In this document: piece after piece, positions 19,786-45,405 of the stretch | Numbering within the stretch: the first letter of the stretch is position 1 | Layout: each line of letters begins with the position of its first letter | Assembly (NCBI GenBank): GCA_964527835.1 | Contig: CAZGNV010000004.1 | Coordinates: 40,079 to 104,078 of the forward strand | DNA: 64,000 bases | From: an uncultured Desulfosarcinaceae bacterium | GTDB lineage: Bacteria; Desulfobacterota; Desulfobacteria; Desulfobacterales; JAFDCJ01 | Direction of reading: 5' to 3' | Program-made: the position numbers and the translations under genes | Notes under the pieces: generated by a model | What the model was told of the DNA's origin: nothing | Databases searched by the model: none | What the model saw: only the letters and a program-made list of their open reading frames with translations

Positions 19786-20367
19786 TCAGATGCCGGGTTT
19801 TTTCCATTGCCGGATCTGTTCACCGATGTTGGGTCTATGGGCCCAGTAAATCAGCGCCACGGTGGCCAGCACCCCGGCGGCTGCCGTTGGATGAAAGCTG
19901 CAGGCAGCCATGGTTCCAGTTCCCAGCAAAGCCACCATGGCCAGCGAGCCGAGAAAAGGCAGCCGGCAAACAGCGAAGACCGCCAGCCACGCCATCACGC
20001 CGGCGCCCGCCCAAAGCGGGGTTAACGCCAGGGTAAAGCCCAGGTAATTGGCCACGCCCTTGCCGCCGCGAAAGCCGTGAAAGCAGGGAAAACGGTTTCC
20101 CGCAATCAACGCCAGACCGGCCCAGGGAACGAGTTGCATCTTCAACAGCTTGAGGCAGATCAGCGCCACGGCCACGGCCCGGCCCATATCCAAAAGCAGG
20201 ATGAGCACCGCCCAGACCATCCCGAGCTGGCGGTAGACATTGGTGGCCCCGGGATTTTTGCTGAAAGCGTCGCGCGGGTCGCCTTTTTTAAGGATCCTGA
20301 AAAGCAGAATCGAAAAATTGATCGAACCGGCCAGGTAGGCGACGGCGAGCAGGGCACTAAGGCGCAA
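19786..20367 (-). CDS. plsY: Acyl-phosphate:glycerol-3-phosphate acyltransferase
   Basis: AYLAGSINF, SKNPGATNVYR, LLDMGRA, FRGGKGVAN, AHRPNI; TTG start at 20367 behind AAGGAG. Confidence 0.88.
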   Translation of the reverse strand: MRLSALLAVAYLAGSINFSILLFRILKKGDPRDAFSKNPGATNVYRQLGMVWAVLILLLDMGRAVAVALICLKLLKMQLVPWAGLALIAGNRFPCFHGFRGGKGVANYLGFTLALTPLWAGAGVMAWLAVFAVCRLPFLGSLAMVALLGTGTMAACSFHPTAAAGVLATVALIYWAHRPNIGEQIRQWKKPGI

Positions 20368-21253
20368 TGAAAACTCCTTTCTGATGGTCGGCCGCCATCC
20401 AGCCCGGTGGTTTGAGCCGGCCGGCGCTGACATCGCGCATGTGCACACCGGATGCGATTTCAAAAAGAGTCCCGTCGCGGTCATAGATATGGATGTCAAA
20501 CACCAGCAGATCCGGGCTAACCTTGACAGGCGTAATCCGGCAGCTGCAGGTTTGGCCGGCGCCGGTGGGTTTGAAGACCACCCGCTGCTCAAACCCTACC
20601 GGAAAGGCAACAATGCCAGCGTAGCGCTGCCCCCAGACACAGGCGGCATGAAAGGCGGCATCCAGGGCAAAGGGCGAACCCAGCTCCCCCACAGGCCCGG
20701 CATCTGCCTGCGCGGCCGGCAGCGCGATTCGGGCCCGGGCACCGTCGCGAGCAAGTTGAACTCCATCGCGGATGTTGTGATAGGCTGGACCAAAGGGCAC
20801 CAGCTCCCGGTAGATGACATCCGCGGGGATCTCAGCACACTGGCCCTCCAGAGCAGTGCGCGGTTGTACCGGTGGCCGGGGAGCATCCGGTTTTGTTCCT
20901 GGAAAACAGCAGCTTGCGTGTTTCTTGATGCGGGTGATGGCGACCTTGGGGGCCCGGCTGCGGGTCAGCAGTCCGGCGGTGATCTCTCCGCTGGCATGTA
21001 CGGCCAGATCGACTTGGACGTCGATTTGACGGGCAGCGGGTTTGATGTCCAAAAACTTGTCAAAACGGGCCGCCGTCATCCAGCCGATGGTTGTGTCCGG
21101 TCGAAATTTCCTGACAGCCGCCGCCAGCACCTGCACCGCCTCCACCGCGGGCAATACGGCCCGGCCTTCAAAACAGTGATCCGCGAAGTGGGGATGCACG
21201 TCAATTTTCATGGTCAGACGGGCCGTATCCGTTATTTGGGAAAGATGCTCCAT
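20357..21253 (-). CDS. Double-hotdog polyketide-type dehydratase
   Basis: HPHFADHCFEGRAVLPAV, YRELVPFGPAY, LDAAFHAACVW. Confidence 0.75.
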   Translation of the reverse strand: MEHLSQITDTARLTMKIDVHPHFADHCFEGRAVLPAVEAVQVLAAAVRKFRPDTTIGWMTAARFDKFLDIKPAARQIDVQVDLAVHASGEITAGLLTRSRAPKVAITRIKKHASCCFPGTKPDAPRPPVQPRTALEGQCAEIPADVIYRELVPFGPAYHNIRDGVQLARDGARARIALPAAQADAGPVGELGSPFALDAAFHAACVWGQRYAGIVAFPVGFEQRVVFKPTGAGQTCSCRITPVKVSPDLLVFDIHIYDRDGTLFEIASGVHMRDVSAGRLKPPGWMAADHQKGVFIAP

Positions 21254-21711
21254 AGATGGGCCGTTTTTTCGTCGACCTGCACCGGGATGCCGGAGGCGTT
21301 GATGGCGCAGTGGCGGGTGAATCCATGGCAGACGATTTCGCCGGTCTGTTCATGGGTGATGACGTAATCAAAGCGCAACCGGACCCGCTCCAGCTGTGAA
21401 GGCCGGGTGTAAATGCAGATCGCATCATCGTAATACAGCGGGCGGTAATAGGTGACGCCGATTTCAATAACCGGATAGACATAGCCGCTTTCTTCAATTT
21501 CGCGGTAGGGATAGGCCGCATCGCGCATCAAAGACGCCCGGCCGAATTCGAAGTAACGCAGATAGTTGGCATGGTAGACCACCTGGGAGCGGTCTGTGTC
21601 GGCATACAGCGTGCGGTGTTGGCAGCGGTGCCAGACCAACCCGTCCGTGGTGTTTCTCACGTAGCGCTCATCACCGTCAAGGATGACGGGCACGAAAGGC
21701 TGCGGTTTCAC
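21232..21711 (-). CDS. Acyl-CoA/ACP thioesterase (YbgC/4HBT hotdog)
   Basis: LYADTDRSQVVYHANYLRYFEFGR; GTG start at 21711. Confidence 0.86.
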   Translation of the reverse strand: MKPQPFVPVILDGDERYVRNTTDGLVWHRCQHRTLYADTDRSQVVYHANYLRYFEFGRASLMRDAAYPYREIEESGYVYPVIEIGVTYYRPLYYDDAICIYTRPSQLERVRLRFDYVITHEQTGEIVCHGFTRHCAINASGIPVQVDEKTAHLWSIFPK

Positions 21712-21712
21712 G

Positions 21713-22978
21713 TTACACCCCTTTGAATACAATACAGCAGTTGGTTCCGCCGAAGCCGAAGGCATTCGAAAGCACAAATTCACACCGGTGCCGGCGGGTG
21801 ACATTCGGAACGACGTCGATATCGGCAAATTCCGGGTCCGGAATATGGTTGATCGTGGGCAGAACCAGACCCTGGGCCATGGCCTCGATGCTCAGGGCCG
21901 CCTCGATGGCAGCCGAAGCGCCCAGGGTATGCCCGATCTGGGACTTGTTGGAGGAAACCGGAATTTTTTCGATCCCGCGGCCGAATACCGTCCGCAGGCA
22001 CTGCACCTCGGTGGCATCTCCCTTGGGCGTCGATGTCCCGTGGGCGTTGACATAATCAATGTCCGCCGGCTGCAGGCCCGCATCGTCGATGGCCTCATTT
22101 ATCGCACGCACGATGGTCTCGGCATTGGGCCGGGTAAAATGAAAGGCATCCGAGGTCCAGCCGACGCCCAGCACCTCGGCCCGGGGAGTCAGCCCGTAGG
22201 CCGTCAGGCGGTCTTCGGCGGCCAGCACTACCACCCCGGCGCCTTCGGAAAGCACAATCCCCTTGCGGTCGATGGAAAACGGCCGGCAGGCCTGGGTTGG
22301 ATCGTCGAAAGCCCGGTCTGCAGGCCCTACACTGATCGTGGCCAGCATGTTGGCAAACCCCTGGATGATTTCAGGGATCAGACAGGTGTCCACCCCGCCG
22401 GCCAGGACAAAGTCGCAATCCCCGTCGCGGATCATGCGCGCGCCGATGCCGATGGCGTGATTGCCGGACGCGCAGGCCCCCTGGGGGGAAAAAATCGGGC
22501 CCGTAAAGCCCAGCAGCATGCCGGCTTTGCCCGCCGGCAGGTTGGCGCACAGGTTGGGCAGCAGGTAGGGACTGACTTTCAGCGGTCCCCGGTTGACATA
22601 ATTGTCCATGGCGATGCGATATGCATCGGTGCCGTTGAGGGCCGATCCGATCAGACAGGCGGTGCGCGGTGCGGTATCGGCATTGATTTCAAGCCCGGCA
22701 TGGTTCAGGGCCTCCTTGCAGACGGCAATGGTCAGAAATACATAATCCGCATTCCAGTTGTAGGCTTCCTTGGCGTCAATAAAATCCAGGGTTGCAGGAT
22801 TCCAGTCCGGGATTTCGCCGACGATGTTGGCGCGGGTATCCATCTGGCAGCGGGTCAGCCGGCGAAAACCGGCCTGCCCTTCAACGGCGTGCCGCCATGT
22901 CTTTTCAAAGGTGGCCCCCAGGGGGGTGGCCGCACCGTAGCCCACGATAAATACGCGCCTGTTTTTTGGAGTTTTCAT
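21713..22978 (-). CDS. fabF: Beta-ketoacyl-ACP synthase II-like
   Basis: GACASGNHAIG, NAHGTST, KSQIGHTLGA, NAFGFGG; start moved to ATG 22978 because the longer ORF runs through a MITE. Confidence 0.9.
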   Translation of the reverse strand: MKTPKNRRVFIVGYGAATPLGATFEKTWRHAVEGQAGFRRLTRCQMDTRANIVGEIPDWNPATLDFIDAKEAYNWNADYVFLTIAVCKEALNHAGLEINADTAPRTACLIGSALNGTDAYRIAMDNYVNRGPLKVSPYLLPNLCANLPAGKAGMLLGFTGPIFSPQGACASGNHAIGIGARMIRDGDCDFVLAGGVDTCLIPEIIQGFANMLATISVGPADRAFDDPTQACRPFSIDRKGIVLSEGAGVVVLAAEDRLTAYGLTPRAEVLGVGWTSDAFHFTRPNAETIVRAINEAIDDAGLQPADIDYVNAHGTSTPKGDATEVQCLRTVFGRGIEKIPVSSNKSQIGHTLGASAAIEAALSIEAMAQGLVLPTINHIPDPEFADIDVVPNVTRRHRCEFVLSNAFGFGGTNCCIVFKGV

Positions 22979-22983
22979 AATTT

Positions 22984-23194
22984 TGATGAAGTCGCAAAAA
23001 GTCCAATTTTTCGCTCCGCAAGCCTTTTCGGGAGCTGTTGCGGGTTTCGCTATCCACCTGAGGCGGACAAGAATTCGTTTCAAGAACTCGTCGCAAGCTC
23101 CTCAAACAGCTTGCGATTTTAACGCTCAACCCTCACAGCTCTTTCTCCGAAAAGGGTTGATGTCGCTCAAAATTAACTTTTTACGATTGCGTCA
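22984..23194. mobile_element. MITE-like element between two KS genes
   Basis: Imperfect TIRs TGATGAAGTCGCAAAAAGTC / AACTTTTTACGATTGCGTCA (15/20); flanking direct repeat TAATTT (22978-83, 23195-200); internal inverted repeat CCTTTTCGG..GAGCTGT. Confidence 0.72.
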
Positions 23195-23225
23195 TAATTT
23201 AGGTCTCGCAAGCGCCGTAGCAAAA

Positions 23226-24482
23226 CTATGCCAAGCGATGCAAAACGATGCAAGCATTGCAGCCGCCGAAGCCGAAGGAATTTTTAAGGACATATTCCTG
23301 CTCCAGCTTACGGGCCCCTTCAGGAACACAGTCCAGCTCCAGTTCCGGGTCGGCGGTGTAATTAATCGTCGGCAGCGCAACCTCCCGGCGCATGCCTTCC
23401 ATGGCAAATATGGCCTCGATGGCGCTGGAGGCGCCCATGGCATGGCCGATCTGCGATTTGTTGGCCGTCACCGGCGGAATCGCATTTTTGAAGACGGCCC
23501 GCAGGGCTTCGTATTCCACCCGGTCACCGATTTTGGTGGAAGTGGCATGGGCATTGACGGCGGCGATATCATGCGCTGATATGCCCGCGTTGTCAATAGC
23601 GGCGGCCATGCAGGCGGTAACGGTTTTCATGTTGGGGGCCACGAAATGATGGGCATCCGCGGTCATGCCCCAGCCGGCCAGCTCGATGGAGCTGTCCAAG
23701 CCGTGGGCGGCGGCAAATTCCCGGGTGGTGATAATCATGCAGCCCGCCCCTTCGGAAACCACAAATCCCCTGCGGTCAACGGAAAACGGCCGGCTGGCCC
23801 GCTCGGGGGGCTCCTGCGGGCCAGCCGGCATTTGCTGGTAAGCCCCGTTCATGGTGGCAAAACCGGCCACGATGGGCTCCACCAGGGCAAAATCAACGGC
23901 CCCGCAAAGGGCCACATCGGCCTGACCCAGTTCAAGCAGCATGGCGCCGAAAATCAGCGAGGAAACTCCGGTGGCGCAGGCCGTCACCGGGGCGGCGATG
24001 GGGCCGGTGGCGCCGGTTAGAATGGATATTTTGCCCCCCACCATGTTGATGCACGAGTTGGGGTTGACATAGGGGGGCGGCAGGCGGTTTTCGGCGATCA
24101 TGCGCCGATCGGCCTTGAGCACCGCATCCTGGCCCCCCACGGCGGAGCTGAAGGTGACGGCCACCCGGGGGGCGAGTGCCGGGGTAATTTCGATGCCGCT
24201 TTTGGCCAGGGCGCGATGGACCACCAGCATGGCATACCTGAAAATCGGAGACGGCCACAGGGCCAGGCTGCGCGGGCTTAAAAAGGGATAGGGTCCGGGG
24301 TCGACATCGTCCACCTGGCCGGCGATGGTGACCGGAAAGCCGTCGGTAATTGCAAAACGGGTCAGCGGCCCGATGCCGCTTTCGCCGTTGAGAGCACGGG
24401 TCCACTGGGTCTGCATGTCGATGCCCAGCGGGGATACGGCGTCATAGGCGATGATCAGGGGTTTGTTGGATGCTGCCGGCAT
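23226..24482 (-). CDS. fabF: Beta-ketoacyl-ACP synthase II-like
   Basis: TACATG, NAHATST, KSQIGHAMGA, NSFGFGG. Confidence 0.9.
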   Translation of the reverse strand: MPAASNKPLIIAYDAVSPLGIDMQTQWTRALNGESGIGPLTRFAITDGFPVTIAGQVDDVDPGPYPFLSPRSLALWPSPIFRYAMLVVHRALAKSGIEITPALAPRVAVTFSSAVGGQDAVLKADRRMIAENRLPPPYVNPNSCINMVGGKISILTGATGPIAAPVTACATGVSSLIFGAMLLELGQADVALCGAVDFALVEPIVAGFATMNGAYQQMPAGPQEPPERASRPFSVDRRGFVVSEGAGCMIITTREFAAAHGLDSSIELAGWGMTADAHHFVAPNMKTVTACMAAAIDNAGISAHDIAAVNAHATSTKIGDRVEYEALRAVFKNAIPPVTANKSQIGHAMGASSAIEAIFAMEGMRREVALPTINYTADPELELDCVPEGARKLEQEYVLKNSFGFGGCNACIVLHRLA

Positions 24483-24521
24483 CAGACTCTTCCATCAGGC
24501 ATTGTTCGCCATGTTGAAGTT

Positions 24522-25520
24522 TTACCACGGAATAAACTGGTACAGCTTGGCAAACATCTCGTAGACTTCAATCCAGTTCTGGAGATCCCGGGTTGTGCGG
24601 ATGTGGGCCCGTTTGTTGACCATCACCCAGCTCATGTGGGCCGCTCCGTCCTTGCAGCTCGAACAGTCCCGGGTTTCGGAAGTACAACAGCGGTGCATGG
24701 TTTTCAGGTCGGAGGCCCAGCGGATAAACTCGATCAGGCGTTTGGGCCGCGGCTCGCGGTTGTCCAGCGGCTGGGTGACCGAAGGGCATTCGTTCCAGCC
24801 GAAGCTGCGGCCCAGCATTTTGCCGGTGGTGATGATTTCATGATAATATTTGGAGGAAATGACCGTATCCGGGTAGCGGTCCAGCATGGCATCCATTTCA
24901 AGCCGGATGGCCTCGAGCTGCTCAGGTTGCCAGCTGAATCCGTCCACCCCTTCATCGTTGGACAGCAGCTGCATGTGGACTTTGAGCCCGGCATCTCTTA
25001 TTTTGCCGATAACGCGTTCGGTTTTGCCGATTTGCCTGGGGGTCAGGGTATAAAGGTAATAGACATTCGGGTCCCCCGCATAGTTTTTACTCGAGATGCT
25101 GAAGGTGTCCCTGCCCCTGAGAATTTTCTCATCGTTTTCATCGCCCCACAGGGAAATGCCCAGCATCAAATCCGGAAACCGCTCCCGCGGTATTTTGATC
25201 AGGCCGTTGGTGGCGCAAAAAGACGGCAGCCGCCGGTAAAAAGCCTCCACCCGGTCCAGGTGCAGGGTGGGTTCTCCGCCGATCAGGATGGCCAGGTTGA
25301 CCCCGCGCTGTTTTTCACGGTCGACGAAGGCCTCCCATTTTTTGATATCCTTCTCTTCGGCGGCCGCCTTGTCCTCACCCGAGGAAAAAAAGAAGCAGCC
25401 CTTGCAGCGCAGGTTGCATTGATTGGTGACATCGTAGATCGAGCTGCGGATATTGAGCTTCGAAATTCGCTTGTAACGCTGGTACCACTGGGGGTCCAGC
25501 AGGGAGCTTACCGTGATCAT
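24522..25520 (-). CDS. Radical SAM protein (paralog A)
   Basis: CNLRCKGC, GGEPTL, C-terminal CC-x6-C-x2-C; start moved to ATG 25520. Confidence 0.88.
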   Translation of the reverse strand: MITVSSLLDPQWYQRYKRISKLNIRSSIYDVTNQCNLRCKGCFFFSSGEDKAAAEEKDIKKWEAFVDREKQRGVNLAILIGGEPTLHLDRVEAFYRRLPSFCATNGLIKIPRERFPDLMLGISLWGDENDEKILRGRDTFSISSKNYAGDPNVYYLYTLTPRQIGKTERVIGKIRDAGLKVHMQLLSNDEGVDGFSWQPEQLEAIRLEMDAMLDRYPDTVISSKYYHEIITTGKMLGRSFGWNECPSVTQPLDNREPRPKRLIEFIRWASDLKTMHRCCTSETRDCSSCKDGAAHMSWVMVNKRAHIRTTRDLQNWIEVYEMFAKLYQFIPW

Positions 25521-25522
25521 CG

Positions 25523-26620
25523 TCAAAAAACCTCGTGGCCGGGGGGCGCTGTCGGTTGTTGGCACAGGTTTTCCCCCTTTTCATATCCCATCACCCACAC
25601 GGCCAGGTACGTGTCGACATAGTCCAGCCAGGCCCTGAACGTATCCGGAGTCGAGGCGTGGCGAAACAGCCGGGCGGTGACCACCGCGCTGCCGGCCGCA
25701 TAATGCCGGCAGTCGGCACAGTCGGTGTCCGGCACACAGCAGGCCACGTCCCGGTCCCATGTCAGGTCCGCGCGGTACTGCCGGAAAGAGCGCCCCAGGC
25801 CGATGGCGGTAGACGGGTTCATCCGGGGATAGGAGCAGCCATACAATTCATGCAATCCGCGCCGGTGGGTGTGGGCCACCGCGTTGTAGGCTGAAAACAG
25901 TATGGTTTCAGGAAACTGCGACAGCAGCTCGAGCATGACTTTGCGGGTTTGTCCCAGGGAGGCCGGGGTATGGCGCAGGTCACCGTCGTAGTCCACCGGC
26001 GCAGAGAACATGTTGAAGGTCAGCCGGCAGCCGTGGTCGGCCAGGATTTGGGCCACCTCGCCGGCCTGGTCGATGTTGTCCCGGGTAAAGGTGTAAACAA
26101 AAACCGCCCGCGGATCGTGGCGATAATTTTTCACCTGCCGGGCCAGCATGTTGTCGGCCCGGCGGATTTTCAGGCTGGTTTCGTCATTTCCCCAGACCGA
26201 GATGTGAATTTTGTAGTTGACCGCTGCCGGGATGAACTTCAGTCCGTTGGTGGCAATCGCCCCCAGGGGCATTTGCTGAAAACAGACTTCACAAAGCTCG
26301 GAAACCATGGAAGGCTCGGCCCCGGCCAGCACGACATAGGTGATGCCCCTTTGCTTTTCAGCCTCCATGAGCCTGCGCCAGGACTGCGGATCCCTGTTTT
26401 CCCGGGCGAACTGCTTTTCGCCTTCGTAATAGTAGCAGCCCTGGCAGCGGATATTGCAGCGGTTGGTCATGTCATAGGTGGATTCACGCAGAAAAAAATA
26501 CTGGCGGACTTTTTCCCAGCGCTGCCGGATTTGCGGATCGGCCAGGATTTCTGAAAATTTCCACTGCTTGCCGGGGGTGGTTTTTGTGCTGCCGCCGGAA
26601 GTCGTTTTCAAGGTGTCCAT
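25523..26620 (-). CDS. Radical SAM protein (paralog B)
   Basis: CNIRCQGC, GAEPS, C-terminal CC-x5-C-x2-C. Confidence 0.88.
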   Translation of the reverse strand: MDTLKTTSGGSTKTTPGKQWKFSEILADPQIRQRWEKVRQYFFLRESTYDMTNRCNIRCQGCYYYEGEKQFARENRDPQSWRRLMEAEKQRGITYVVLAGAEPSMVSELCEVCFQQMPLGAIATNGLKFIPAAVNYKIHISVWGNDETSLKIRRADNMLARQVKNYRHDPRAVFVYTFTRDNIDQAGEVAQILADHGCRLTFNMFSAPVDYDGDLRHTPASLGQTRKVMLELLSQFPETILFSAYNAVAHTHRRGLHELYGCSYPRMNPSTAIGLGRSFRQYRADLTWDRDVACCVPDTDCADCRHYAAGSAVVTARLFRHASTPDTFRAWLDYVDTYLAVWVMGYEKGENLCQQPTAPPGHEVF

Positions 26621-26640
26621 CTTTGTCTTGCCCGCCGGAG

Positions 26641-26919
26641 CTAGGCGTCGGCTGCCTGCGTCAGTTTGTTGGCGATATATTCGGAAATCAGCCGCACACT
26701 GGTCAGTTTGGGATAATCGTCCTCATCGATTCGAATGGCGTATTCGTCGCGCAGCACAAGGGCCACCGTGGCCAGGTCCATGCTGTCGATGCCCACCTCG
26801 TCAATCAGGTCGATGTCCGGGTCAAAGGTTTGGGGGGTCACATCCTCCAGTTTGAGTTCGGCGATCATGATTTGCGCTACGTGCAGAATGATTTTTTCAA
26901 CATCCGGTGCTGTCGACAT
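26641..26919 (-). CDS. Acyl carrier protein 1
   Basis: Acidic 92 aa, GIDSMD phosphopantetheine site. Confidence 0.9.
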   Translation of the reverse strand: MSTAPDVEKIILHVAQIMIAELKLEDVTPQTFDPDIDLIDEVGIDSMDLATVALVLRDEYAIRIDEDDYPKLTSVRLISEYIANKLTQAADA

Positions 26920-26934
26920 TCGGATTTTTCTCCT

Positions 26935-27309
26935 TTAGCTGCCGGGTCCATCCCGGTTTTCAACGGTTATGATGCCGCTGCAGGCCAGCTCTTCTGCAGC
27001 CATGATACGAAAGGAAAACGAGCCGGGCTTTTTTTCCCGGGCGGCCGCAAAAATGTGCAGGCGGTCATCGGGACCGATGCGCTGCTTGAACCGGATCCGC
27101 GAAACACTGGCAATTTTCAGCGCTGATTCGCCGGCCTGATCAATGGCGTCAAACACCATTGCCAGCTGGGCGATGCCCGGAAGAACCGGCGCTTGCGGGA
27201 AATGTCCGCAAAACCAGGCCGAATCCGGCGGGATGTGAACATCGGCGCGGATTTCCCCTGATTGGGACCGGCTGACGTTGGTTAGCGTATGCCATGACAT
27301 AAAATTCAA
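26935..27309 (-). CDS. FabA/FabZ-like hotdog dehydratase (ApeI-like)
   Basis: WFCGHFPQAPVLPGIAQL, RIRFKQRIGP. Confidence 0.82.
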   Translation of the reverse strand: MNFMSWHTLTNVSRSQSGEIRADVHIPPDSAWFCGHFPQAPVLPGIAQLAMVFDAIDQAGESALKIASVSRIRFKQRIGPDDRLHIFAAAREKKPGSFSFRIMAAEELACSGIITVENRDGPGS

Positions 27310-27353
27310 ATTTAAACGAAATCAATCCAATATTCAAGCCCAAAAAGCGCATC

Positions 27354-32615: not shown

Positions 32616-32633
32616 ACTGGAAATTTCACCATA

Positions 32634-35257: not shown

Positions 35258-35283
35258 AACAACAACCGATTCAACGGGATGAA

Positions 35284-37512: not shown

Positions 37513-39015
37513 TTAATATTCCCCGATGGCGGCTTCCAGATCCCGGAAAACGTTGACGGTTTTCTGCCGCTGGATGACCCGCTCGTAGCGTCCCTGCCAG
37601 CCGTATTTTTTCAGGCTCCGCCCGATGACAATCTTGGCCGCCGGCCGAAAAGCGTAGCGCCAGATGCCGGTCCACAGGGGGCCCCGGCTCCGGACGCGCT
37701 CCGAGGGCTCCCACCAGCCCAGCACCTTCTGGCGGTGATACCAGAACAGGTACTGCAGCCGATCGGAATCCAGGTGACGGGTTTTCACATTGGCCCACAT
37801 GCCGTTGTACCAGCGAAAGTCGTCCGGGTTGGTCACCAGCCCTTCGTCGATCAGGTGCCGGCGCATGCCGGTTTTGGGGTAGGGGGTCAGGATCTGGCAG
37901 TAGGCGGTGTCGGCCTGGACTTCCTTTAGAAAGCGGTAATTTTCGATGATGTCCGGTTCTTCGTCATCCGGAAAGCCGAAAATCATCCCTCCCACCACCA
38001 TGATGTCGTATTTGTGACACATCTGCACGGCTTTGCGGGAGGCCTCCACGATGTTGCCCTTGCCGGCGGTGGCCAGGTTTTTCCGGGAGGCGTTTTCAAT
38101 TCCCAAAAAGACGGTTTTCACCCCGGCCAGCGACATTTTGCGCACCATCTCCTCGTTGCGGGACATGGAAATACAGTCGGCCTGGACCACCAGTTGCAGG
38201 TTTTGATATTCGCGGGCGATGATGGCATCGCAGATGGCGATGACCCGCTCGGGATCCAGCACCAGGTTGTCGTCGGCCACGAAAATCCAGTGGGTTTTAC
38301 GGTTGTAGTAGATATCGTCAATGTCCGCCAGCACGCGCTCGATGGGAAAGGTGCGGAAGGTCCGGCCGTACATGTGCCGCATGCTGCAGTAGTTGCAGGT
38401 GCGGGTGCAGCCGCGGGAGGTTTCCATGACCTCGACCTTGGAGTTCATGATGTGGTAGCCCCAGGTCAGCCGCCGTTTGTCGCGGATGGGATGCTTCAGC
38501 CGCGCCAGGTCCAGCAGCTCGCCCTGGGCATTGTGCACGAAACGCCCGTTGCGCTTGTAGGACAGCGACGCAATGTCTTCCAGCCGGTCTTTGCCGGCCA
38601 GGGCGTTGACCAGCCGGCGGCAGGCTTTCTCGCCTTCGCCGCGGACGATAAAATCGATCAAAGCGGCTTCAGGAGAAGCCGCAATTTCTTCATGCATCAG
38701 GGTGGCGTGATAGCCGCCGATGACGATTTTGACGTCAGGCAGCAGCTGTTTGATCAGGCGGATCAGCTTGACGCAGGTGTCGTACTGCCATGACATGGTG
38801 GACAGGCCCACCAGCTCGGGACGTATCTTGAGCAGGGTCCGGGTCAGGTATTTGACCAGCGTGCGGCGTTTGCGGATCAGGTCGATGAGAAAAACTTGGT
38901 GGCCGTCATCAATGTTGGCACCCACACTGGCAATGCCGCAATTGGGCATGTGAAAGGCGGCTTCATGCATGATGACCGGGGCCACGTCCGGCATGGACAT
39001 CAGGACAACTTTCAT
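37513..39015 (-). CDS. B12-binding radical SAM protein
   Basis: VGLSTM, VIGGYHAT, ETSRGCTRTCNYC, LTPYPKT. Confidence 0.92.
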   Translation of the reverse strand: MKVVLMSMPDVAPVIMHEAAFHMPNCGIASVGANIDDGHQVFLIDLIRKRRTLVKYLTRTLLKIRPELVGLSTMSWQYDTCVKLIRLIKQLLPDVKIVIGGYHATLMHEEIAASPEAALIDFIVRGEGEKACRRLVNALAGKDRLEDIASLSYKRNGRFVHNAQGELLDLARLKHPIRDKRRLTWGYHIMNSKVEVMETSRGCTRTCNYCSMRHMYGRTFRTFPIERVLADIDDIYYNRKTHWIFVADDNLVLDPERVIAICDAIIAREYQNLQLVVQADCISMSRNEEMVRKMSLAGVKTVFLGIENASRKNLATAGKGNIVEASRKAVQMCHKYDIMVVGGMIFGFPDDEEPDIIENYRFLKEVQADTAYCQILTPYPKTGMRRHLIDEGLVTNPDDFRWYNGMWANVKTRHLDSDRLQYLFWYHRQKVLGWWEPSERVRSRGPLWTGIWRYAFRPAAKIVIGRSLKKYGWQGRYERVIQRQKTVNVFRDLEAAIGEY

Positions 39016-39830
39016 GATTTTTTCACTCCATCAGTATTTTTTGCAGTTTGGGATTCAAGCAGCCAGCGCACCCGGGCCATCAATTCAGCAACTGCAAATG
39101 AGTCGCTATGGTAGTCCGGTTCAATACGGGCCAGCTGTTGAACGCGGATGGTATCGGTTGCGCAGGCGTTGAACAGAAACCGGCCGGGTTCAAACAGTTT
39201 GTCGGTGTTGTCAATTCGCAGGACGACAATCGGGGCCCGGCACAGTCGGGCGATTTTAAACGCTCCCTTGTTGAGGGGTCCGATGGTGCCGTCGCGGCTG
39301 CGGGTGCCTTCCGGGAAAATGAACAGATTGCCGCCCGAGGCCAGGTACGGCTCCATGGTTTCCATGCGCTGGATCATGACTTCCGCCAGCCGGCCTTCGG
39401 AAGCCGACGGAATGTATCCGGACCACAGCAGCATGCGGCCGAATATGGGCACCCTGAAAAAAGTGCTTTTGACAATGGTTTTGTGCCGCGCAAACAACGA
39501 GATCAGCACCAGCGGATCCAGGTACGACAAATGGTTGCAGACAATCACCGCGCAGCGCAGCGACCGGATCTCATCGGGTATCCGCCATTTGTGCCCCGGA
39601 ATCAGGATGCGGGCGACAAAAAAGAACCCCCGGTAGAACTTGTGGTTCAACCGCTGAAAGGCAAGCTCGCGGTTTTCGGCCACCAGCCAGGCGATCAGGT
39701 AGCGCGGGGAAAACAAAACCACAAAACCGAGGGTAAAATAAATCCAGATCCCCGCGGTGGCGCCAATATCCAACACCGGTTTCAGGAGGCGGCAGAAAAA
39801 ATGCTGTTCGGATTTGTTATAATGGTTCAC
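39012..39830 (-). CDS. plsC: 1-acyl-sn-glycerol-3-phosphate acyltransferase family
   Basis: NHLSYLD (NHxxxxD), FPEGTRS. Confidence 0.88.
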   Translation of the reverse strand: MNHYNKSEQHFFCRLLKPVLDIGATAGIWIYFTLGFVVLFSPRYLIAWLVAENRELAFQRLNHKFYRGFFFVARILIPGHKWRIPDEIRSLRCAVIVCNHLSYLDPLVLISLFARHKTIVKSTFFRVPIFGRMLLWSGYIPSASEGRLAEVMIQRMETMEPYLASGGNLFIFPEGTRSRDGTIGPLNKGAFKIARLCRAPIVVLRIDNTDKLFEPGRFLFNACATDTIRVQQLARIEPDYHSDSFAVAELMARVRWLLESQTAKNTDGVKKS

Positions 39831-39833: not shown

Positions 39834-41066
39834 TTATGGCTTTTTGATAATCAAGCAGGTGTTCACCCCGCCAAAGGCGAAATTCTGGACGGCGGCGATG
39901 CGAATGTCGGCCTCCATAAGGCTGCGGGCATGCCGGATCATGGCGCAGCGCTCATCGATCTCCTCCAGGTTCAGGGTGGGGGCGATAAAGCCTTTTTCCA
40001 TCATGTACAGGGTGAGCAGGGCTTCGATGGCCCCGCACGACCCCATGGTATGTCCCATGTAGCTTTTGAGCCCGGTGACCACCGGACCGTCCGCGTACAC
40101 CCTGCCGGTGGCCTGGGCCTCGATGGTGTCGCCCATTTTGGTGGCCGTGGCATGGGCGCTGACAAAATCCACCGCATCGGCGCTGACGGCCGCATCCTCA
40201 AGCGCCAGCCGGATGGTGGCGGTAATGCCCTCCGGGTTCGGCAGAATCAGATCCCCGCCGTTGTTGGTGCAGGAAAAGCCGATGATTTCCCCCAGGATCT
40301 GAGCGCCGCGCTTTTTGGCGAATTCAAAATCTTCCAGCAGCAGGGCGCCGGCCCCCTCGGCCACCACCAGGCCGTCGCGGTGCTTGTCGAAGGGCCGCGG
40401 CGTCAGGTGCGGCGTGTCGTTGTATTCGGTGGAGCAGGCCAGCAGGTTGTCAAACACCGCCACCGTGGTGGTGTCATACTCGTCGGCGCCGCCGCAGAGC
40501 ATGGCATCCTGGCGGCCGAATCGGATCATTTCGTAGCCGAAGCCGATGGACTGGCTGCTGGTGGTGCAGGCCGTGGAGGAGGAAATCACCCGTCCGGTGA
40601 TGCCGAACATCTTGGTGATGTTGACCGCCGTGGTGTGCACCATGGATTTTAAATAATCCACGGCTCCGATGGAGGAAAAACGGGTGCGCGATCCGCTGAA
40701 AAAGGATTTGTATATTTCCCTTTGAACCGACGGGCTGCCGTGGGTGGAGCCGAAAGCCACCCCCAGTCTGCCGGAGGTGATAAAGGCATTGTCCAGCCCG
40801 GAGGCTTCCAGGACTTCCTTGGCCACCTGGCAGGCATAATAGGACACCGGGCCCATGGTCTTGCGATAGTGGCGTTTGAAATCGAAGCTGATGGGATAAT
40901 CAACGGTGCCGAACACCCCGGAATGAATATAACCGGACAGCAGGTCGTCGGGTTTCATTTTTTTAACCCCGGAGACCCCCTGCTCCAGGTGACGGATAAT
41001 TTCATCTTTGCTATGGCCGATGGGGGTGATGGCGCTGCCGGCCGTAATGACGACTCTGCGTTGCAT
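39834..41066 (-). CDS. Beta-ketoacyl-ACP synthase
   Basis: TACTTSSQSIG, SAHATAT, KSYMGHTMG, NFAFGG; start moved to ATG 41066. Confidence 0.9.
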   Translation of the reverse strand: MQRRVVITAGSAITPIGHSKDEIIRHLEQGVSGVKKMKPDDLLSGYIHSGVFGTVDYPISFDFKRHYRKTMGPVSYYACQVAKEVLEASGLDNAFITSGRLGVAFGSTHGSPSVQREIYKSFFSGSRTRFSSIGAVDYLKSMVHTTAVNITKMFGITGRVISSSTACTTSSQSIGFGYEMIRFGRQDAMLCGGADEYDTTTVAVFDNLLACSTEYNDTPHLTPRPFDKHRDGLVVAEGAGALLLEDFEFAKKRGAQILGEIIGFSCTNNGGDLILPNPEGITATIRLALEDAAVSADAVDFVSAHATATKMGDTIEAQATGRVYADGPVVTGLKSYMGHTMGSCGAIEALLTLYMMEKGFIAPTLNLEEIDERCAMIRHARSLMEADIRIAAVQNFAFGGVNTCLIIKKP

Positions 41067-41148
41067 TTCCAAAATCCCGGGGTGCGCTGATGGCGGCCCC
41101 AATGTTGTTAGGTGGAATTTCCGGCCGCTGTTGGGGACGGATTTGTGA

Positions 41149-41430
41149 TCATGCCTGCCGGGTCTTTGCTTCTCCGGGGGCCCGGCTGCCTGCCAGCATT
41201 TCAATGTAATCCAGAATCTGATTGATGGTTCGGATTTCCATGGCCATCTTTTTTTCGGCCCGGCTCAATTCCGAGCCGAGCATAATTTCGATCTCGCGCA
41301 GCAGCTCGATGGCATCGATACTGTCAAACTCGTGTATCTCCCTCAGGTCATCGTCGAGCCCGGGATTGTCGATCTCAAACTGATCGCTGAAGATCCTGAT
41401 AATCTCGGATTGTATTTCGTCACGCGTCAT
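41149..41430 (-). CDS. Acyl carrier protein 3
   Basis: EFDSIDAIEL. Confidence 0.88.
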   Translation of the reverse strand: MTRDEIQSEIIRIFSDQFEIDNPGLDDDLREIHEFDSIDAIELLREIEIMLGSELSRAEKKMAMEIRTINQILDYIEMLAGSRAPGEAKTRQA

Positions 41431-41463: not shown

Positions 41464-42396
41464 TTACATCTTCTGCCCGGTTTGTTCAACCCCAAATGAT
41501 TGCGGCGCCGGTTTCGCTCCAGCGCGCAGAAAGGGCTTGAAATGATACCATTGCAGCGGATGGCGTCGCAGCGCCGCTTCCAGGGCATCGGCATATTCTT
41601 GGGCTGACTGCCGGATGGCCGCATCTCGCTGGTCGCGGGCGGCGGCAGTGATGGATATGGGCGGCGACATGTTGAACTGGTAGTGGTTTTTTCCGGTGCG
41701 GAAGGCAAAAAAAATGAAGATGGGGGCGCCCGATACCAGCGCCAGCACATGGGGCGTCTGGGGCAGTGCGATTTCATGGCCCAAAAATTTCGCCGCCACC
41801 GTGCGTTGATCCTTTTTCCACACCAGATCCCCGGCCATTGAAACCACGCCGCCTTCCTGAACGAATCGGATGCCCTCGACAATATCCAGGGGCGATCCGC
41901 CGTGTTCGTCCGCCGCCACGATCCGGATGTCATTTTGAACCAGGCTCTGTTTTTGAATCCGTTCGATCTGTTCTTTCTGTTTGGCTCCCATGTACAGCAG
42001 CAGCGGGGTTTTCTTGAGCCGGCGTTTGAGCAGGTGGGCGCCCACCTCCCAGTTGCCCATGTGGGACATGAGCAAGATGGCGCCGCGGCCGCCGGCCAGG
42101 TTTTGCTCCAGGTGCTCCAGGCCGCTGGAAGTATAGGTGATGGCATCAAATTCCTGCAGCACAAAGCGGTCGAAAACGACATCCGTAAAATTATGAAACT
42201 GCCGCCAGGCGCACCACAGGTGAAACAGCCGGCCGCGATCGGGGTACAGGGCACGGTATAATCTTACGGAGTTGTTGACCCGGGCCGGGAAAAACAGGAA
42301 ATATCCCGTGGCCACAAACCAGGCAAACAGCCCAAAGACCCAGGGGCCCAGGATTTTCGTCAGCCGGGTGGTGGTTTTATAGAATAATTCGCTCAT
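41464..42396 (-). CDS. LpxL-like lysophospholipid/lipid acyltransferase
   Basis: SHMGNWE, SMAGD, PLQWYHF. Confidence 0.85.
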   Translation of the reverse strand: MSELFYKTTTRLTKILGPWVFGLFAWFVATGYFLFFPARVNNSVRLYRALYPDRGRLFHLWCAWRQFHNFTDVVFDRFVLQEFDAITYTSSGLEHLEQNLAGGRGAILLMSHMGNWEVGAHLLKRRLKKTPLLLYMGAKQKEQIERIQKQSLVQNDIRIVAADEHGGSPLDIVEGIRFVQEGGVVSMAGDLVWKKDQRTVAAKFLGHEIALPQTPHVLALVSGAPIFIFFAFRTGKNHYQFNMSPPISITAAARDQRDAAIRQSAQEYADALEAALRRHPLQWYHFKPFLRAGAKPAPQSFGVEQTGQKM

Positions 42397-42521: not shown

Positions 42522-43253
42522 TCAATGTTTTCCCACGAAAGGGTGCAGCAGGATCCTGCGGGTGATCAACCGCGAAAAGGTGCAGGTGTTTCTTAAAAAG
42601 TCGACAAACGGCCGGAAATGGGAGACCCGTTCGCCGGCCGGGGCATAGCAAACCCCGACCGGCACTTCGACAACCGGGATTTGCTTCCAGCAGGCTTTTA
42701 CCAGGATTTCGATTTCAAATTCGAAGCGCCGGGCCTTGACGTTCAGTTCCAGAGCTTCCGGCAGGGGATAGATCCTGAACCCGCTTTGGGTGTCCCGCAG
42801 GCGGGGCCCTCCCGCACAGGCGATCCAGAAATTTGAAAAACGGCGGCCGAAGCGGCTGGTCCAGGGGACATTTTGTCCGTCCATGCCCTGCCGCAGGCCC
42901 ACCACGATGGGGCGGGCGTGTTCCCCGATGGCCCGCATCATCAGCCGGGCATCGGCCGGGTTATGCTGTCCGTCGGCATCGATGGTAATGGCCCAGTTCG
43001 CCACTTCGGCGGCGGCGGCAAAACCGGTGAGCAGGGCCGCTCCCTTGCCGCAGTTTTGCGGATGGTGCAGAACGTGGATATGCTTGAAGGCGCTGATTCT
43101 TTCATAACTGCCATCCGTGGAACCGTCATCGACCACGAAAACCGGCATATCCAGCTCCAGGGATTTTTTGACCACGTCTTGGATGTGCCGTTGATGGTTG
43201 TACACCGGGATGACAACGGCAAATCGCTGTTTTTGCGCAGGTGACAGGTCCAT
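42522..43253 (-). CDS. Glycosyltransferase family 2
   Basis: VIPVYN, VDDGSTD, NCGKGAAL, IDADGQH, DTQSGFR; ATG 43253 overlaps the upstream TGA. Confidence 0.92.
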   Translation of the reverse strand: MDLSPAQKQRFAVVIPVYNHQRHIQDVVKKSLELDMPVFVVDDGSTDGSYERISAFKHIHVLHHPQNCGKGAALLTGFAAAAEVANWAITIDADGQHNPADARLMMRAIGEHARPIVVGLRQGMDGQNVPWTSRFGRRFSNFWIACAGGPRLRDTQSGFRIYPLPEALELNVKARRFEFEIEILVKACWKQIPVVEVPVGVCYAPAGERVSHFRPFVDFLRNTCTFSRLITRRILLHPFVGKH

Positions 43254-44980
43254 CAGGATCCGTGCACAGCTGCAGGCAAAAACGCCACGGCCCACGTCCC
43301 CGGCCCGAAATGAACCCCGGAGGTCAACGATATGGGCTGCAGCAAGATTTCACTGGACTCAAACCGGGCGGCGATGGCTTTTTGGGCCGTAGTCTCCACC
43401 CAGTCGCGATTATCACTGTACTCCAGCATGATCAGGGGAGCCGAGCCGAACGGGCAGGCGGAGTTCAGTTTTTCAAGGGCGAATTTCAGCTGGGCGGCTG
43501 CGTTTTTTGCCGTGCCCATCTTTTTGGCACCTTCAGCCGTGGGGCTGATGATGGGCTTGACATGCAGCATGTCGCCGAAAAATGCACTGGATTTGGACAA
43601 GCGCCCGCCGGCGGCAAGATATTTGAGCTTGTCCAGAAAAACATATTCCTCACAAGTCCGGACCGCCCGCCGGGCAAAATCGATCACCGCTTCCGGGTCG
43701 TCGGTTGTTTGGGCATACCGGGCGGTGGCCAGGGCAATGGTGCCCAGGCGGCCCGAGGCCGCCCCCGTATCGATGACGATCAGGCGGCTGCCCGCATCAT
43801 TGTGGTTTTTCCACTGCATGGCAACGTCAAAGTTGCCCGTATAAACAGAGCCGACGCAAAGGTACAGCACCCGGGGGTATAGTTCCGTCACCCGCTGGTA
43901 ATACTGGTGGCGCTCGAACATCGAGGCCTGGGAGGTGGAGGCCTGGATGCCGGCCCGCATGTTCTGATAAAGTTCGGTGGCGGTAAACAGACTTTCCGGC
44001 AGGGACTTGTCGCCGGCGATGATGTAGCTGTCCAGCAGGGTGACACCCAGTTGGCGGGCCATTTCCCGGCTCATGGAGCCGGCGGCATCGGTCATGATAT
44101 GAAGAGCGCCTTGTGGGCTGGATTGTTTGAAAGCGTTGATCTGGGCGGCGAGATCGTCGTCGGTCCACTGCACCACCTGCCCGAGATCCTCCATTTTGCG
44201 GCGTAAAGACGCCACGTCTGCGGTGTGCAGGTGAACCTTCAGGTAGTCCTTGTGGGGGATCAGCACCACGTTGTCGCCGTTTTGGCGCAGGCGGTCGATT
44301 TTTTCCTGTTCATTGCCGTCCAGGCGGATGACGGTGTCCACACAGTGGCCGGCTTCCATTTGAGCCTGAAAGGACGAAGAGATTGCAAGCAGACCCTTGA
44401 ATCGCGCTGCCAGCGGTTGAAACCCGTCGGTCCGGCCGGCGAGGTGCTTGAAAAAACTTTCAAAAAACAGATACATCCCCAGCGCGCCGGAGTCCACAAC
44501 GCCGGCGGGCTTCAGACCGGGCAGCAGTTGGGGGGTTAATTTTACGGCCGCCTCCAGCTGGTCGATGATTTCGTCAACGGATGCATCCAGGGCCGGCCTG
44601 CCGTTTTTGGCCAGGACATCCACCAGGGTGTCGAAAACCGTCAGCATGGTTCCGTGGACCGGGTTGCTGACAGCCTGCCAGGCTTGGTCGCGGCCCAGTT
44701 TCGCAGCCTGCAGAAGATCTTCCAGGGTGTCGGCCGTCAGAAAGCCGGCGAAAAAGCGGGCTGCGATGTTGCCGGAGTTTCCCCGCGCGGCCAGCAGCAG
44801 CTGCTGGATGGTCGCATCCCGGTTTTCATCCAGGTAGCGCAAGGGCGTGAGGCTGGCGATCAGGTTGCGACCGGTATCACCGTCGGCCACTGGAAAGACA
44901 TTGATGCTGTCCAGAACGTCGGACCAGGCGGCCACCCTTTCAACACCGGCAATGTGGGCTTTTTGAAAATCCGGTTTCAT
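43253..44980 (-). CDS. DAK2 (FakA-like) + DegV (FakB-like) fusion, putative fatty acid kinase
   Basis: INVFPVADGDTGRNL, ARGNSG, GTMLTV, VVDSG; then DegV part IMTDAAG, TSQAS, IDTG, GVHFGPG. Confidence 0.88.
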   Translation of the reverse strand: MKPDFQKAHIAGVERVAAWSDVLDSINVFPVADGDTGRNLIASLTPLRYLDENRDATIQQLLLAARGNSGNIAARFFAGFLTADTLEDLLQAAKLGRDQAWQAVSNPVHGTMLTVFDTLVDVLAKNGRPALDASVDEIIDQLEAAVKLTPQLLPGLKPAGVVDSGALGMYLFFESFFKHLAGRTDGFQPLAARFKGLLAISSSFQAQMEAGHCVDTVIRLDGNEQEKIDRLRQNGDNVVLIPHKDYLKVHLHTADVASLRRKMEDLGQVVQWTDDDLAAQINAFKQSSPQGALHIMTDAAGSMSREMARQLGVTLLDSYIIAGDKSLPESLFTATELYQNMRAGIQASTSQASMFERHQYYQRVTELYPRVLYLCVGSVYTGNFDVAMQWKNHNDAGSRLIVIDTGAASGRLGTIALATARYAQTTDDPEAVIDFARRAVRTCEEYVFLDKLKYLAAGGRLSKSSAFFGDMLHVKPIISPTAEGAKKMGTAKNAAAQLKFALEKLNSACPFGSAPLIMLEYSDNRDWVETTAQKAIAARFESSEILLQPISLTSGVHFGPGTWAVAFLPAAVHGS

Positions 44981-45405
44981 GGTGAAAGCTCCAGGGCCTG
45001 GCGGATATCATCCGGTATTTCAAACAATATTTCCATGGCGGGATATTTTACCGCCACCTGCTCGCTTCTGCCTTTGGCGCAAAGCTGGTCGTTTTTGATC
45101 AGCTTGATTTTAAAATCGATCACGATCTTGTATTGGGCCTCGGCCACCGTGGCCTCGCAGATGAATTCATCGCGGTATTTCAGGGAAACGATGTACTTTG
45201 TGGCGGTTTTTATTATCGGAAACAGACAGCGGGTCTTTTGATAATAATCAAACAGATCGATTCCCACGTCATGAAAGAGCGCTGAGCGCGTCTGATCGAA
45301 ATATTTCAGGTAATTTCCATGCCACACCATGTTCATGGGGTCCAGGTCGTAAAACGGCACCGTGAAGGTCATCGCATGGCTTTTGTACACTTGGTTATTC
45401 ATCAC
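44977..45405 (-). CDS. Acyl-CoA/ACP thioesterase (4HBT hotdog)
   Basis: FYDLDPMNMVWHGNYLKYFD. Confidence 0.88.
   Translation of the reverse strand: MMNNQVYKSHAMTFTVPFYDLDPMNMVWHGNYLKYFDQTRSALFHDVGIDLFDYYQKTRCLFPIIKTATKYIVSLKYRDEFICEATVAEAQYKIVIDFKIKLIKNDQLCAKGRSEQVAVKYPAMEILFEIPDDIRQALELSP

Follow-up and report, generated by a model that had tools for sequence, protein, structure and literature searches.

A candidate acyl-phosphate route with a single-chain fatty-acid kinase and a PlsY paralogue in a radical-SAM lipid cluster of a Desulfosarcinaceae bacterium

The stretch of DNA analysed here (the window, 64,000 nucleotides) corresponds to contig C4:40079-104078 of the draft genome (4.46 Mb, 95% complete) of an uncultured Desulfosarcinaceae bacterium. 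Profile searches with Pfam and NCBIfam revealed one large lipid cluster, spanning ~14 to 45.4 kb of the window, which encodes a predicted fatty-acid kinase in a single chain (hereafter the fusion), two thioesterases (TE1 and TE2), a paralogue of the acyltransferase PlsY that we call PlsY2, and an LPLAT-family acyltransferase, together with ketosynthases (KS), acyl carrier proteins (ACP) and radical SAM enzymes (rSAM). We consider it probable, if far from assured, that the acyl chain made by this cluster is put on glycerol-3-phosphate (G3P) by the cluster's own thioesterase-kinase-PlsY2 route, or by the same route with an ordinary PlsY, a reading built on sequence comparisons. What is observed directly is which genes are present, that their key residues are intact, that TE1, the fusion and GT2 are translationally coupled, and that the genes recur in synteny and tend to occur together. 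An earlier note on the same DNA had named four of these genes (the fusion, TE1, plsY and a 'plsC') as parts of such a route, and all four are borne out by Pfam and NCBIfam matches at the positions collected in Table 1.

A predicted fatty-acid kinase in one chain

The fusion consists of three consecutive elements. Pfam places a Dak2 domain at residues 30-176 (68.6 bits), FakA-like_M at 210-281 (29.7 bits) and a DegV domain at 293-569 (PF02645, 143.5 bits, profile positions 2-279 of 280). The match to the NCBIfam YloV profile covers positions 1-338 of 530 only and scores 167 bits, below the cut-off of 396, and that to FakA_VfrB reaches 99 bits (cut-off 975); after the YloV match comes a complete DegV domain (TIGR00762, 143.6 bits, above the cut-off of 99.7). 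FakA-like_C (PF13684), the FakB-docking domain, gave no match in the fusion in the Pfam search. The protein had previously been described as a single-chain DAK2+DegV protein coupled to a thioesterase, which agrees with both the domain matches and the overlap of the two genes reported below, while its reading as FakA plus FakB has to be corrected to FakA_N, FakA_L (the middle domain) and DegV, with FakA_C dropped. Since FakA_N and FakA_L form the minimal active unit and FakA_C serves only to dock FakB (PMC9136124), the fusion can be seen as FakA_N-FakA_L with FakB itself tethered in the place of the docking domain.

The residues expected of such an enzyme are in place. N27, D33, D35, T36, N68 and D163 align with the ATP/Mg residues of the S. 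suis and S. aureus FakA proteins (Asn32, Asp38, Asp40, Thr41, Asn82 and Asp185 in S. aureus numbering), and C213, H250 and H252, found in the sequences GHCVD and KVHLHT, align with the catalytic Cys240, His282 and His284 of the middle domain. The carboxylate cage of the DegV domain is likewise aligned (T349, S353, S378, T381, R460 and H557, with the motifs TSQ, GSxxTG, GGR and HxGPG; the carboxylate-binding residue types in FakB are Thr61, Ser93, Arg170 and His264), and all of these kinase and cage residues are invariant among 37 homologues with identities down to 45%. An AlphaFold2 model of the fusion (predicted local distance difference test score 88.3, predicted template-modelling (TM) score 0.89) has parts that match FakA_N at a root-mean-square deviation of 2.4 Å, and it matches ~40 fatty-acid-loaded DegV/FakB structures, among them 1PZX, 2DT8, 6DKE and 4X9X (TM-scores, taken relative to target length, of 0.78-0.87). 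These alignments support the view that no residue required for Fak catalysis or for the binding of fatty acids is missing from the fusion, and the kinase looks active.

Compared with the FakA/FakB systems of Firmicutes (S. aureus and S. suis; PDB 7RM7, 6W6B and 7W7H), the fusion has the same Dak2 Mg/ATP residues, the same Cys-His-His middle domain and the same Thr/Ser/Arg/His carboxylate cage in a DegV fold, and in both systems the presumed acyl-phosphate product would feed PlsY. The differences lie in its architecture and its setting: the fusion is one polypeptide with DegV where FakA_C sits, falls below both the FakA and the YloV cut-offs of NCBIfam, and is found in Gram-negative-type anaerobes, where it stands inside a specialised lipid cluster, coupled to a thioesterase, and would not serve to scavenge host fatty acids. 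Homologues are annotated by NCBI and JGI merely as 'DegV family protein', the close ones being labelled Desulfobacterales, Desulfobacteraceae or Thermodesulfobacteriota by their sources, and a literature search returned no paper describing a Dak2-DegV single-chain kinase or a Fak role in clusters of this type. A library of 50%-identity representatives contains 296 clusters at E <= 1e-30, besides remoter full-length Dak2-M-DegV proteins with identities down to 25%, so that the architecture as such is widespread. A genome from the window's own genus has its kinase gene (G007:C22:489-2213) spread over several frames with internal stops, which points to a pseudogene or else to a fault of assembly; an apparent thioesterase-Dak2-DegV fusion, P0199, contains frameshift-like garbage stretches and was rejected as an assembly artefact, so that it does not count as evidence of gene fusion.

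The kinase gene is tightly packed between its neighbours, the stop codon of TE1 overlapping the start of the fusion (ATGA) and the stop of the fusion overlapping the start of the gene for a family 2 glycosyltransferase (GT2; TGATG). A scan of relatives, taking one genome per species, yielded at least 437 relatives of the fusion, labelled Desulfobacterales, Syntrophales (Smithella, Syntrophus), Spirochaetota/Leptospirales and SAR324, and the locus counts given throughout refer to the best 80 of these. Of the 80 loci, 70 have TE1 immediately upstream of the fusion and 66 have GT2 downstream; an LpxL-like gene was counted in 47, the gene of a 423-residue radical SAM protein in 46. Wherever the loci reach far enough, the fusion is surrounded by KS, ACP and radical SAM cluster genes, and the plus-strand module at 31735-36306 of the window adjoins the TE1-Fak module in many of them. 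Three long contigs, with fusions 62-67% identical, keep the same order of TE, fusion, GT2, Lip_A_acyltrans, ACP, KS, PF01553 and B12-rSAM. Because it recurs in synteny in several phyla, the arrangement goes far beyond chance, and these data support the conclusion that the kinase fusion is a constant part of such clusters across phyla.

PlsY2 and the glycerolipid enzymes of the order

The plsY gene of the window encodes a divergent member of its family, scoring 130.8 bits on PF02660 and 104.9 bits on the TIGR00023 equivalog, below the cut-off of 137.2. Within the order to which the window belongs, PlsY proteins fall into two sharply separate classes: canonical proteins, with Pfam scores of 160-178 bits and at most 41% identity to the window's protein, and PlsY2, with 101-132 bits and at least 45% identity. 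A maximum-likelihood tree recovers PlsY2 as a separate clade with 100/100 support, inside which members from SAR324 and Leptospirales are nested. In the numbering of A. aeolicus PlsY (aaPlsY; PMC5700162), the G3P-binding residues S35, N37, R45, K104, H177 and N180, as well as the GGKGVA 'phosphate hole', are kept in all 30 PlsY2 members that cover them, and every PlsY2 is devoid of Arg183.

The genomic position of PlsY2 is equally distinctive. Across phyla, it is the last gene of a run ending either rSAM-KS418-KS456-TE2-dehydratase (DH)-PlsY2 or ACP1-KS1-LPLAT-PlsY2 in 19 of 20 sampled genomes, and this terminal position holds even where the operon is hundreds of kb away from the kinase module. 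Two genes upstream of plsY lies that of TE2, which is more strongly conserved than any other protein of the set (~70% identity across phyla), and TE2-(DH)-PlsY2 forms a conserved sub-operon. PlsY2 is operonic with the fusion in loci L095 and L100 (Fak-GT2-LpxL-like-LPLAT-PlsY2) and in L148 (TE2-DH-PlsY2-TE1-Fak). Together with the tree, these sequence comparisons support the identification of PlsY2 as a cluster-specific paralogue rather than an ordinary plsY product. In one genome, TE2-DH is followed only by an N-terminal PlsY2-like stretch (G030:C1:2346309-2346566; residues 3-68, 59% identity) inside an 879-residue frame, which may be a fusion or a remnant.

The fusion and PlsY2 also tend to occur together. 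Among 201 genomes of the order, 20 have both, 7 PlsY2 only, 33 the fusion only and 141 neither, which in Fisher's exact test, with kinship between the genomes ignored, gives an odds ratio of 12 (p = 2.6e-8). The two genes share a contig in 8 genomes, 4-67 kb apart. When 50 fusion-bearing genomes from across phyla are considered, PlsY2 is the sole PlsY in 39, a canonical PlsY stands alone in 7, and 4 are without any. The link between PlsY2 and the fusion is thus strong, yet PlsY2 is not obligatory in some lineages: the co-occurrence that the earlier note had suggested checking appears both within the order and across phyla, while 33 of the 53 fusion-bearing genomes of the order do without PlsY2.

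A more prosaic possibility is that thioesterase, kinase and PlsY2 are housekeeping enzymes that feed bulk phospholipid synthesis or recycle free fatty acids after the loss of PlsX, and merely stand beside the cluster. The window's plsY is the only plsY in the source genome, and PlsY2 is unaccompanied by another PlsY in 25 of the 27 members of the order that have it, as in 39 of 39 such genomes across phyla. PlsX was not found in the source genome by Pfam search, nor by tblastn with six PlsX proteins of the same phylum (best E = 0.49); a search of this genome for a canonical FakA or another DegV protein found none either, which leaves the fusion with no rival source of acyl-phosphate there and favours the dedicated route. 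The order as a whole has no PlsX (0 of 45 genomes, vs 113 of 151 in the phylum). The lone plsY and the lack of PlsX would suit a housekeeping role, and other points speak against it. Outside the cluster, the source genome encodes a PlsB-like glycerol-3-phosphate acyltransferase (GPAT; 881 residues, 447 bits over the full length of NF003441, below the 610-bit cut-off) and a PlsC that scores above its cut-off. A PlsB-like protein is near-universal in the order (193 of 201 genomes) and PlsY is often missing (50 of 201 have no PlsY of any kind), which suggests that PlsY is accessory and that the bulk of glycerol-phosphate acylation most likely runs through the PlsB-like enzyme. The fusion, in turn, is present in only 53 of the 201 genomes, and at least 7 of its 9 carriers outside the order encode PlsX as well, from which it follows that the kinase is not simply a substitute for PlsX and travels with the cluster. 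With the fusion inside this cluster type in the best 80 of at least 437 loci and PlsY2 closing a cluster operon in nearly all sampled genomes, we regard the housekeeping explanation as improbable. The earlier note had allowed that these might be the only housekeeping copies, unlinked to such a cluster elsewhere; the source genome turns out to have a PlsB-like GPAT and a PlsC at other sites, and the linkage recurs in many genomes.

In comparison with the PlsX/PlsY/PlsC pathway, the cluster similarly combines a PlsY-family enzyme with intact G3P residues and phosphate hole with an LPLAT for the second acylation. It differs in that there is no PlsX, so that acyl-phosphate would arise from a thioesterase and a kinase at the cost of one ATP, in that PlsY2 forms a clade of its own with His92 replaced by Asn and Arg183 lost, and in that the bulk GPAT is probably PlsB-like.

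Besides the kinship that the association test leaves aside, several observations weigh against the thioesterase-kinase-PlsY2 route. Every PlsY2 has Asn at the position of His92, and T41 varies (T, V, F or S). In A. aeolicus PlsY, no side chains other than His92 and Thr41 bind acyl-phosphate, His92 is 97.8% conserved among PlsY proteins, and an H92N mutant retains 7% activity (PMC5700162), so the acyl donor of PlsY2 could differ. Of the 53 fusion-bearing genomes of the order, 27 have a canonical PlsY only and 6 have no PlsY; the kinase module is present in all eight of these 27 genomes for which the neighbourhood of the fusion was fetched. Conversely, in six of the seven PlsY2-only genomes the sequence that was retrieved around PlsY2 contains no further gene of the cluster, part of which is present in the remaining one, G251. 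Genome G340 contains both modules and no PlsY2, the PlsY2 position being occupied by a fusion of a polyketide synthase (PKS)-type DH with an Sfp-type phosphopantetheinyl transferase (L197:3560-5098), after which comes an alpha/beta-hydrolase gene. The E. coli hotdog thioesterase ApeK, of which TE1 is the counterpart, showed no in vitro thioesterase activity on ACP-bound intermediates (PMC8253772). Finally, ~104 of the 201 genomes keep a PlsY in the company of neither PlsX, FakA nor the Fak fusion, which implies that another acyl donor or another source of acyl-phosphate must exist in the lineage. A search of the neighbours of canonical plsY in the order for an alternative maker of acyl-phosphate turned up only IspH-UbiA-like and Smr genes as recurrent; in the canonical loci of relatives (L006-L017), plsY adjoins a gene for an IspH-like/UbiA-like membrane prenyltransferase fusion and a small Smr-domain gene.

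These observations raise the question of whether PlsY2 uses the kinase product at all. It could take another donor, with acyl-phosphate going to a different consumer (reloading of ACP, or another acceptor) or with DegV acting mainly as a lipid carrier or sensor. The H92N signature of the PlsY2 clade, the variable T41 and the many PlsY proteins of the order that lack a visible source of acyl-phosphate would all agree with this, as would the fact that the fusion is far more tightly associated with TE1, GT2 and the LpxL-like gene, PlsY2 lying within 10 kb of it in only 3 of 80 loci. We nevertheless give little credence to this alternative: PlsY2 has kept its phosphate hole and every G3P residue, all catalytic residues of the kinase are strictly conserved, the source genome has no PlsX-like transferase, and some PlsY accompanies the fusion in 93 of 103 genomes. 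The dedicated route from acyl-phosphate to glycerolipid, as first proposed in the earlier note, is therefore upheld in part, drawing on the intact residues, the coupling, the synteny and the co-occurrence, and is weakened by the optional character of PlsY2 and its loss of His92.

The gene previously called plsC (39012-39830) does encode an LPLAT-family acyltransferase (PF01553, 73 bits) with the HX4D (NHLSYLD) and FPEGTR (FPEGTRS) motifs. Its score on the 1-acyl-G3P acyltransferase profile TIGR00530 (68.5 bits) is below the cut-off of 102.95, which a paralogue on contig C54 exceeds (115.6 bits), and it lies near the fusion in only 20 of the 80 loci, so that the name plsC is not retained. On these profile scores, the protein is best called an LPLAT-family acyltransferase resembling ApeD, and by analogy with that enzyme it probably acylates the sn-2 position. 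LPLAT adjoins PlsY2 in loci L095, L100, L171 and L179.

Cluster layout and comparison with known lipid clusters

The cluster is organised in two minus-strand runs separated by a plus-strand module (Table 1). The first run, from 45405 down to 36293, comprises TE1, the fusion, GT2, the LpxL-like gene, ACP1, KS1, LPLAT, the B12-binding rSAM gene and two genes that belong to no family; the second, from 31487 down to 19786, contains the chain-building module followed by TE2, the PKS-type DH and plsY.

Table 1. Features of the lipid cluster in the window.
Feature	Position	Strand	Evidence or remark
TE1, YbgC/FadM-like hotdog thioesterase (4HBT_2), ApeK counterpart	44977..45405	-	Pfam, NCBIfam; YDLD catalytic-Asp motif
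Predicted single-chain fatty-acid kinase, FakA_N (Dak2) + FakA_L (middle) + DegV/FakB domain, 575 residues	43253..44980	-	
GT2, polyprenyl-phosphate glycosyltransferase type (PpgS/DPM1-like); corresponds to ApeJ's glycosyltransferase half	42522..43253	-	Pfam, NCBIfam
LpxL/PatA-type acyltransferase (Lip_A_acyltrans); corresponds to ApeJ's acyltransferase half	41464..42396	-	PF03279, 72 bits
ACP1	41149..41430	-	PP-binding
KS1, FabF/FabB-like ketosynthase	39834..41204	-	Pfam, NCBIfam
LPLAT-family acyltransferase ('plsC' of the earlier note), ApeD counterpart	39012..39830	-	PF01553
B12-binding radical SAM enzyme, 500 residues	37513..39015	-	Pfam, NCBIfam
FlxB-like ketoreductase (KR), LolA-like protein, unassigned 219-residue protein, B12-like radical SAM protein (423 residues), DUF362 protein	31735..36306	+	
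Chain-building module: ACP2, fusion of KS and chain-length factor (CLF), TIGR04072 radical SAM, ApeI-like DH, ACP3, two radical SAM, KS418, KS456	21713..31131	-	
TE2, second YbgC/FadM-like hotdog thioesterase	21232..21828	-	Pfam, NCBIfam
PKS-type double-hotdog dehydratase (PS-DH)	20357..21253	-	Pfam
PlsY2, cluster-linked PlsY paralogue	19786..20367	-	start possibly up to the ATG at 20433
Conserved 115-residue membrane protein	19415..19762	+	no family; convergent on plsY2
Polysaccharide deacetylase and MMPL/RND exporter fused to methyltransferase (ApeM-like)	13969..17885	-	

Some of these assignments deserve comment. The best NCBIfam match of the KR in the plus-strand module is the flexirubin reductase FlxB, and the NCBIfam matches of the LpxL-like protein are acyltransferases of phosphatidylinositol mannosides (PIM) and of lipid A; an open reading frame (ORF) that overlaps the latter gene on the same strand (41427-42254) was rejected as a nonsense frame rich in W, R and C that belongs to no family. 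Beyond plsY, a GT25 gene stands alongside those for the polysaccharide deacetylase and for the MMPL/RND-SAM methyltransferase fusion, which is 1023 residues long and after which comes the deacetylase gene. Taken with the PpgS-like GT2, these two genes may recall the lipid-phosphate-GalNAc (N-acetylgalactosamine) synthase/deacetylase pairs of lipid A modification. The two adjacent genes at 36293-37512 on the minus strand, downstream of the gene for the 500-residue B12-radical SAM enzyme, encode paralogues of ~200 residues without a Pfam family, and homologues of this pair adjoin a stand-alone PlsY2 in genome G337. Homologues of the membrane protein at 19415-19762 are also found divergently upstream of the kinase gene in Spirochaetota loci. 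A 131-residue frame antisense to it (19412-19807, minus strand) gave conserved tblastn matches beside PlsY2 and, in Spirochaetota, beside the fusion; as a replacement of TE1 upstream of the Spirochaetota fusion it was rejected, being the antisense of the plus-strand gene and having no Pfam match. Scans for promoters and terminators at the ends of the cluster returned nothing above the shuffled expectation.

The closest known parallel for the assembly end of the cluster is provided by the aryl-polyene (APE) clusters. The solved aryl-polyene lipid (APEL) is a diacylglycerol-phosphate-GalNAc with the polyene on the sugar (bioRxiv 10.1101/2020.12.19.423268). During its assembly, the LPLAT ApeD attaches the special chain to sn-2, ApeJ transfers both the sugar and an acyl group, a hotdog thioesterase is provided by ApeK, and ApeL and ApeM export the lipid (bioRxiv 10.1101/2020.12.19.423268; PMC8253772). 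Like the APEL assembly genes of Xenorhabdus and E. coli (ApeK, ApeD, ApeJ, ApeL and ApeM), the cluster of the window encodes a hotdog thioesterase, an LPLAT, a GT2 and an acyltransferase, a LolA-like protein and an MMPL protein, and it shares with APE clusters the ApeI-like DH and the FlxB-like KR; the expected product class is accordingly an acylated glycerol-phosphate-sugar lipid. Unlike in APE clusters, the functions of ApeJ are here spread over two genes, several radical SAM and B12 enzymes come in addition, and a fatty-acid kinase and a PlsY paralogue, both missing from APE clusters, are present.

This comparison also bears on the idea, put forward in the earlier note, that the kinase replaces the AMP-ligase step of APE clusters. 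The AMP-ligase ApeH loads the aryl starter onto ACP (PMC8253772), and none of the ORFs scanned between 11.4 and 47.5 kb contains an AMP-binding domain. Given that ApeH acts on the starter and that the present cluster has no aryl starter, the analogy is wrong: the Fak module stands at the lipid-assembly end, beside the counterparts of ApeK, ApeJ and ApeD, and the kinase belongs to attachment.

The same parallel gives rise to the main alternative regarding the chain itself, namely that the very same enzymes place an ordinary or salvaged C14-C18 chain on the lyso-phosphatidate scaffold, while the special chains go directly from their ACPs to the lipid through the LPLAT and the LpxL-like acyltransferase. 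In APEL, the sn-1 chain is plain myristate or palmitate and only ApeD and ApeJ handle special chains (bioRxiv 10.1101/2020.12.19.423268), so that one glycerol position does carry an ordinary saturated chain. Characterised FakB proteins bind C14-C18 acids, and the DegV domain of the fusion aligns with them over its full length; moreover, in an order without PlsX, any scaffold that depends on PlsY needs a kinase. What makes this alternative unlikely in our estimate, while still deserving weight, is that the kinase and PlsY2 each have a dedicated thioesterase tightly coupled to them, that the near-universal PlsB-like GPAT would render a second route to ordinary lyso-phosphatidate redundant, and that the donor-binding site of PlsY2 is changed.

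The chain-building end of the cluster points to a second known group. The product of ORF 27354-28703, which stands beside KS and ACP genes, scores 397.7 bits on TIGR04072 ('lipid biosynthesis B12/radical SAM'), above the cut-off of 360, and the cluster of the window is of the kind for which antiSMASH uses the name 'ladderane'. 'Ladderane-type' clusters of fatty-acid synthesis and radical SAM genes (an antiSMASH class; TIGR04072) also occur in non-anammox Desulfobacterota, where their product is not known (PMC2649909; PMC9902471), and they are common in anaerobic sediment bacteria and expressed in nature (PMC9902471). Like the clusters of Kuenenia and Desulfotalea, that of the window combines TIGR04072 above its cut-off with several FabF paralogues and ACPs, in a member of the Desulfobacterota without known ladderanes. 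The published descriptions of ladderane-type clusters mention no DegV/Dak2 protein, thioesterase or acyltransferase, all of which are present here (PMC2649909; PMC9902471).

A proposed route to a phosphoglycolipid

In the route that we favour, in which the cluster's own chain is attached to G3P, we infer from the genes described above all of the enzymatic steps and their order, as well as what the chain is. TE1 and/or TE2 would hydrolyse the acyl-ACP delivered by the KS, ACP and radical SAM machinery of the cluster, and the DegV domain of the one-chain kinase would hold the resulting free acid while the tethered FakA_N and FakA_L phosphorylate it with ATP. The acyl-phosphate would then pass to PlsY2, or to an ordinary PlsY in lineages without PlsY2, to give 1-acyl-G3P. 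A second cluster chain may be added from ACP by the ApeD-like LPLAT, a sugar may be placed on the phosphate by the PpgS-like GT2, and a further acyl group may be attached by the LpxL-like acyltransferase, before the lipid is exported by the LolA-like and MMPL proteins. The outcome would be a phosphoglycolipid on the plan of the aryl-polyene lipid, with chains modified by radical SAM enzymes.

Extending this proposal to the whole family, we tentatively suggest, with more doubt than confidence, that a cluster family shared by Desulfobacterales, Syntrophales, Spirochaetota and SAR324 attaches radical-SAM-modified chains to glycerol phosphate through acyl-phosphate chemistry with the help of a self-sufficient one-chain kinase, that the donor site of PlsY2 was retuned for such chains (H92N), and that the product may represent an undescribed class of outer-membrane phosphoglycolipids. 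To our knowledge, an acyl-phosphate route with a fatty-acid kinase has so far been shown only for the ordinary lipids of Gram-positive bacteria. If correct, the proposed route would constitute the first physiological role of a Fak system outside Gram-positive fatty-acid scavenging, and would widen fatty-acid kinase biology from scavenging to dedicated lipid biosynthesis. The fusion would also represent a natural one-chain kinase in which FakA_C appears dispensable once FakB is tethered, an arrangement that may be useful for enzymology and for synthetic-cell lipid pathways. A PlsX-less, PlsB-using order that still keeps PlsY raises the question of where its acyl-phosphate comes from. For the ladderane-type clusters, the assembly end formed by thioesterase, kinase, PlsY2, LPLAT, GT2 and the LpxL-like protein would predict a product class, an acylated glycerol-phosphate-sugar lipid, and the kinase and plsY2 genes would serve as handles for finding the cluster lipid.

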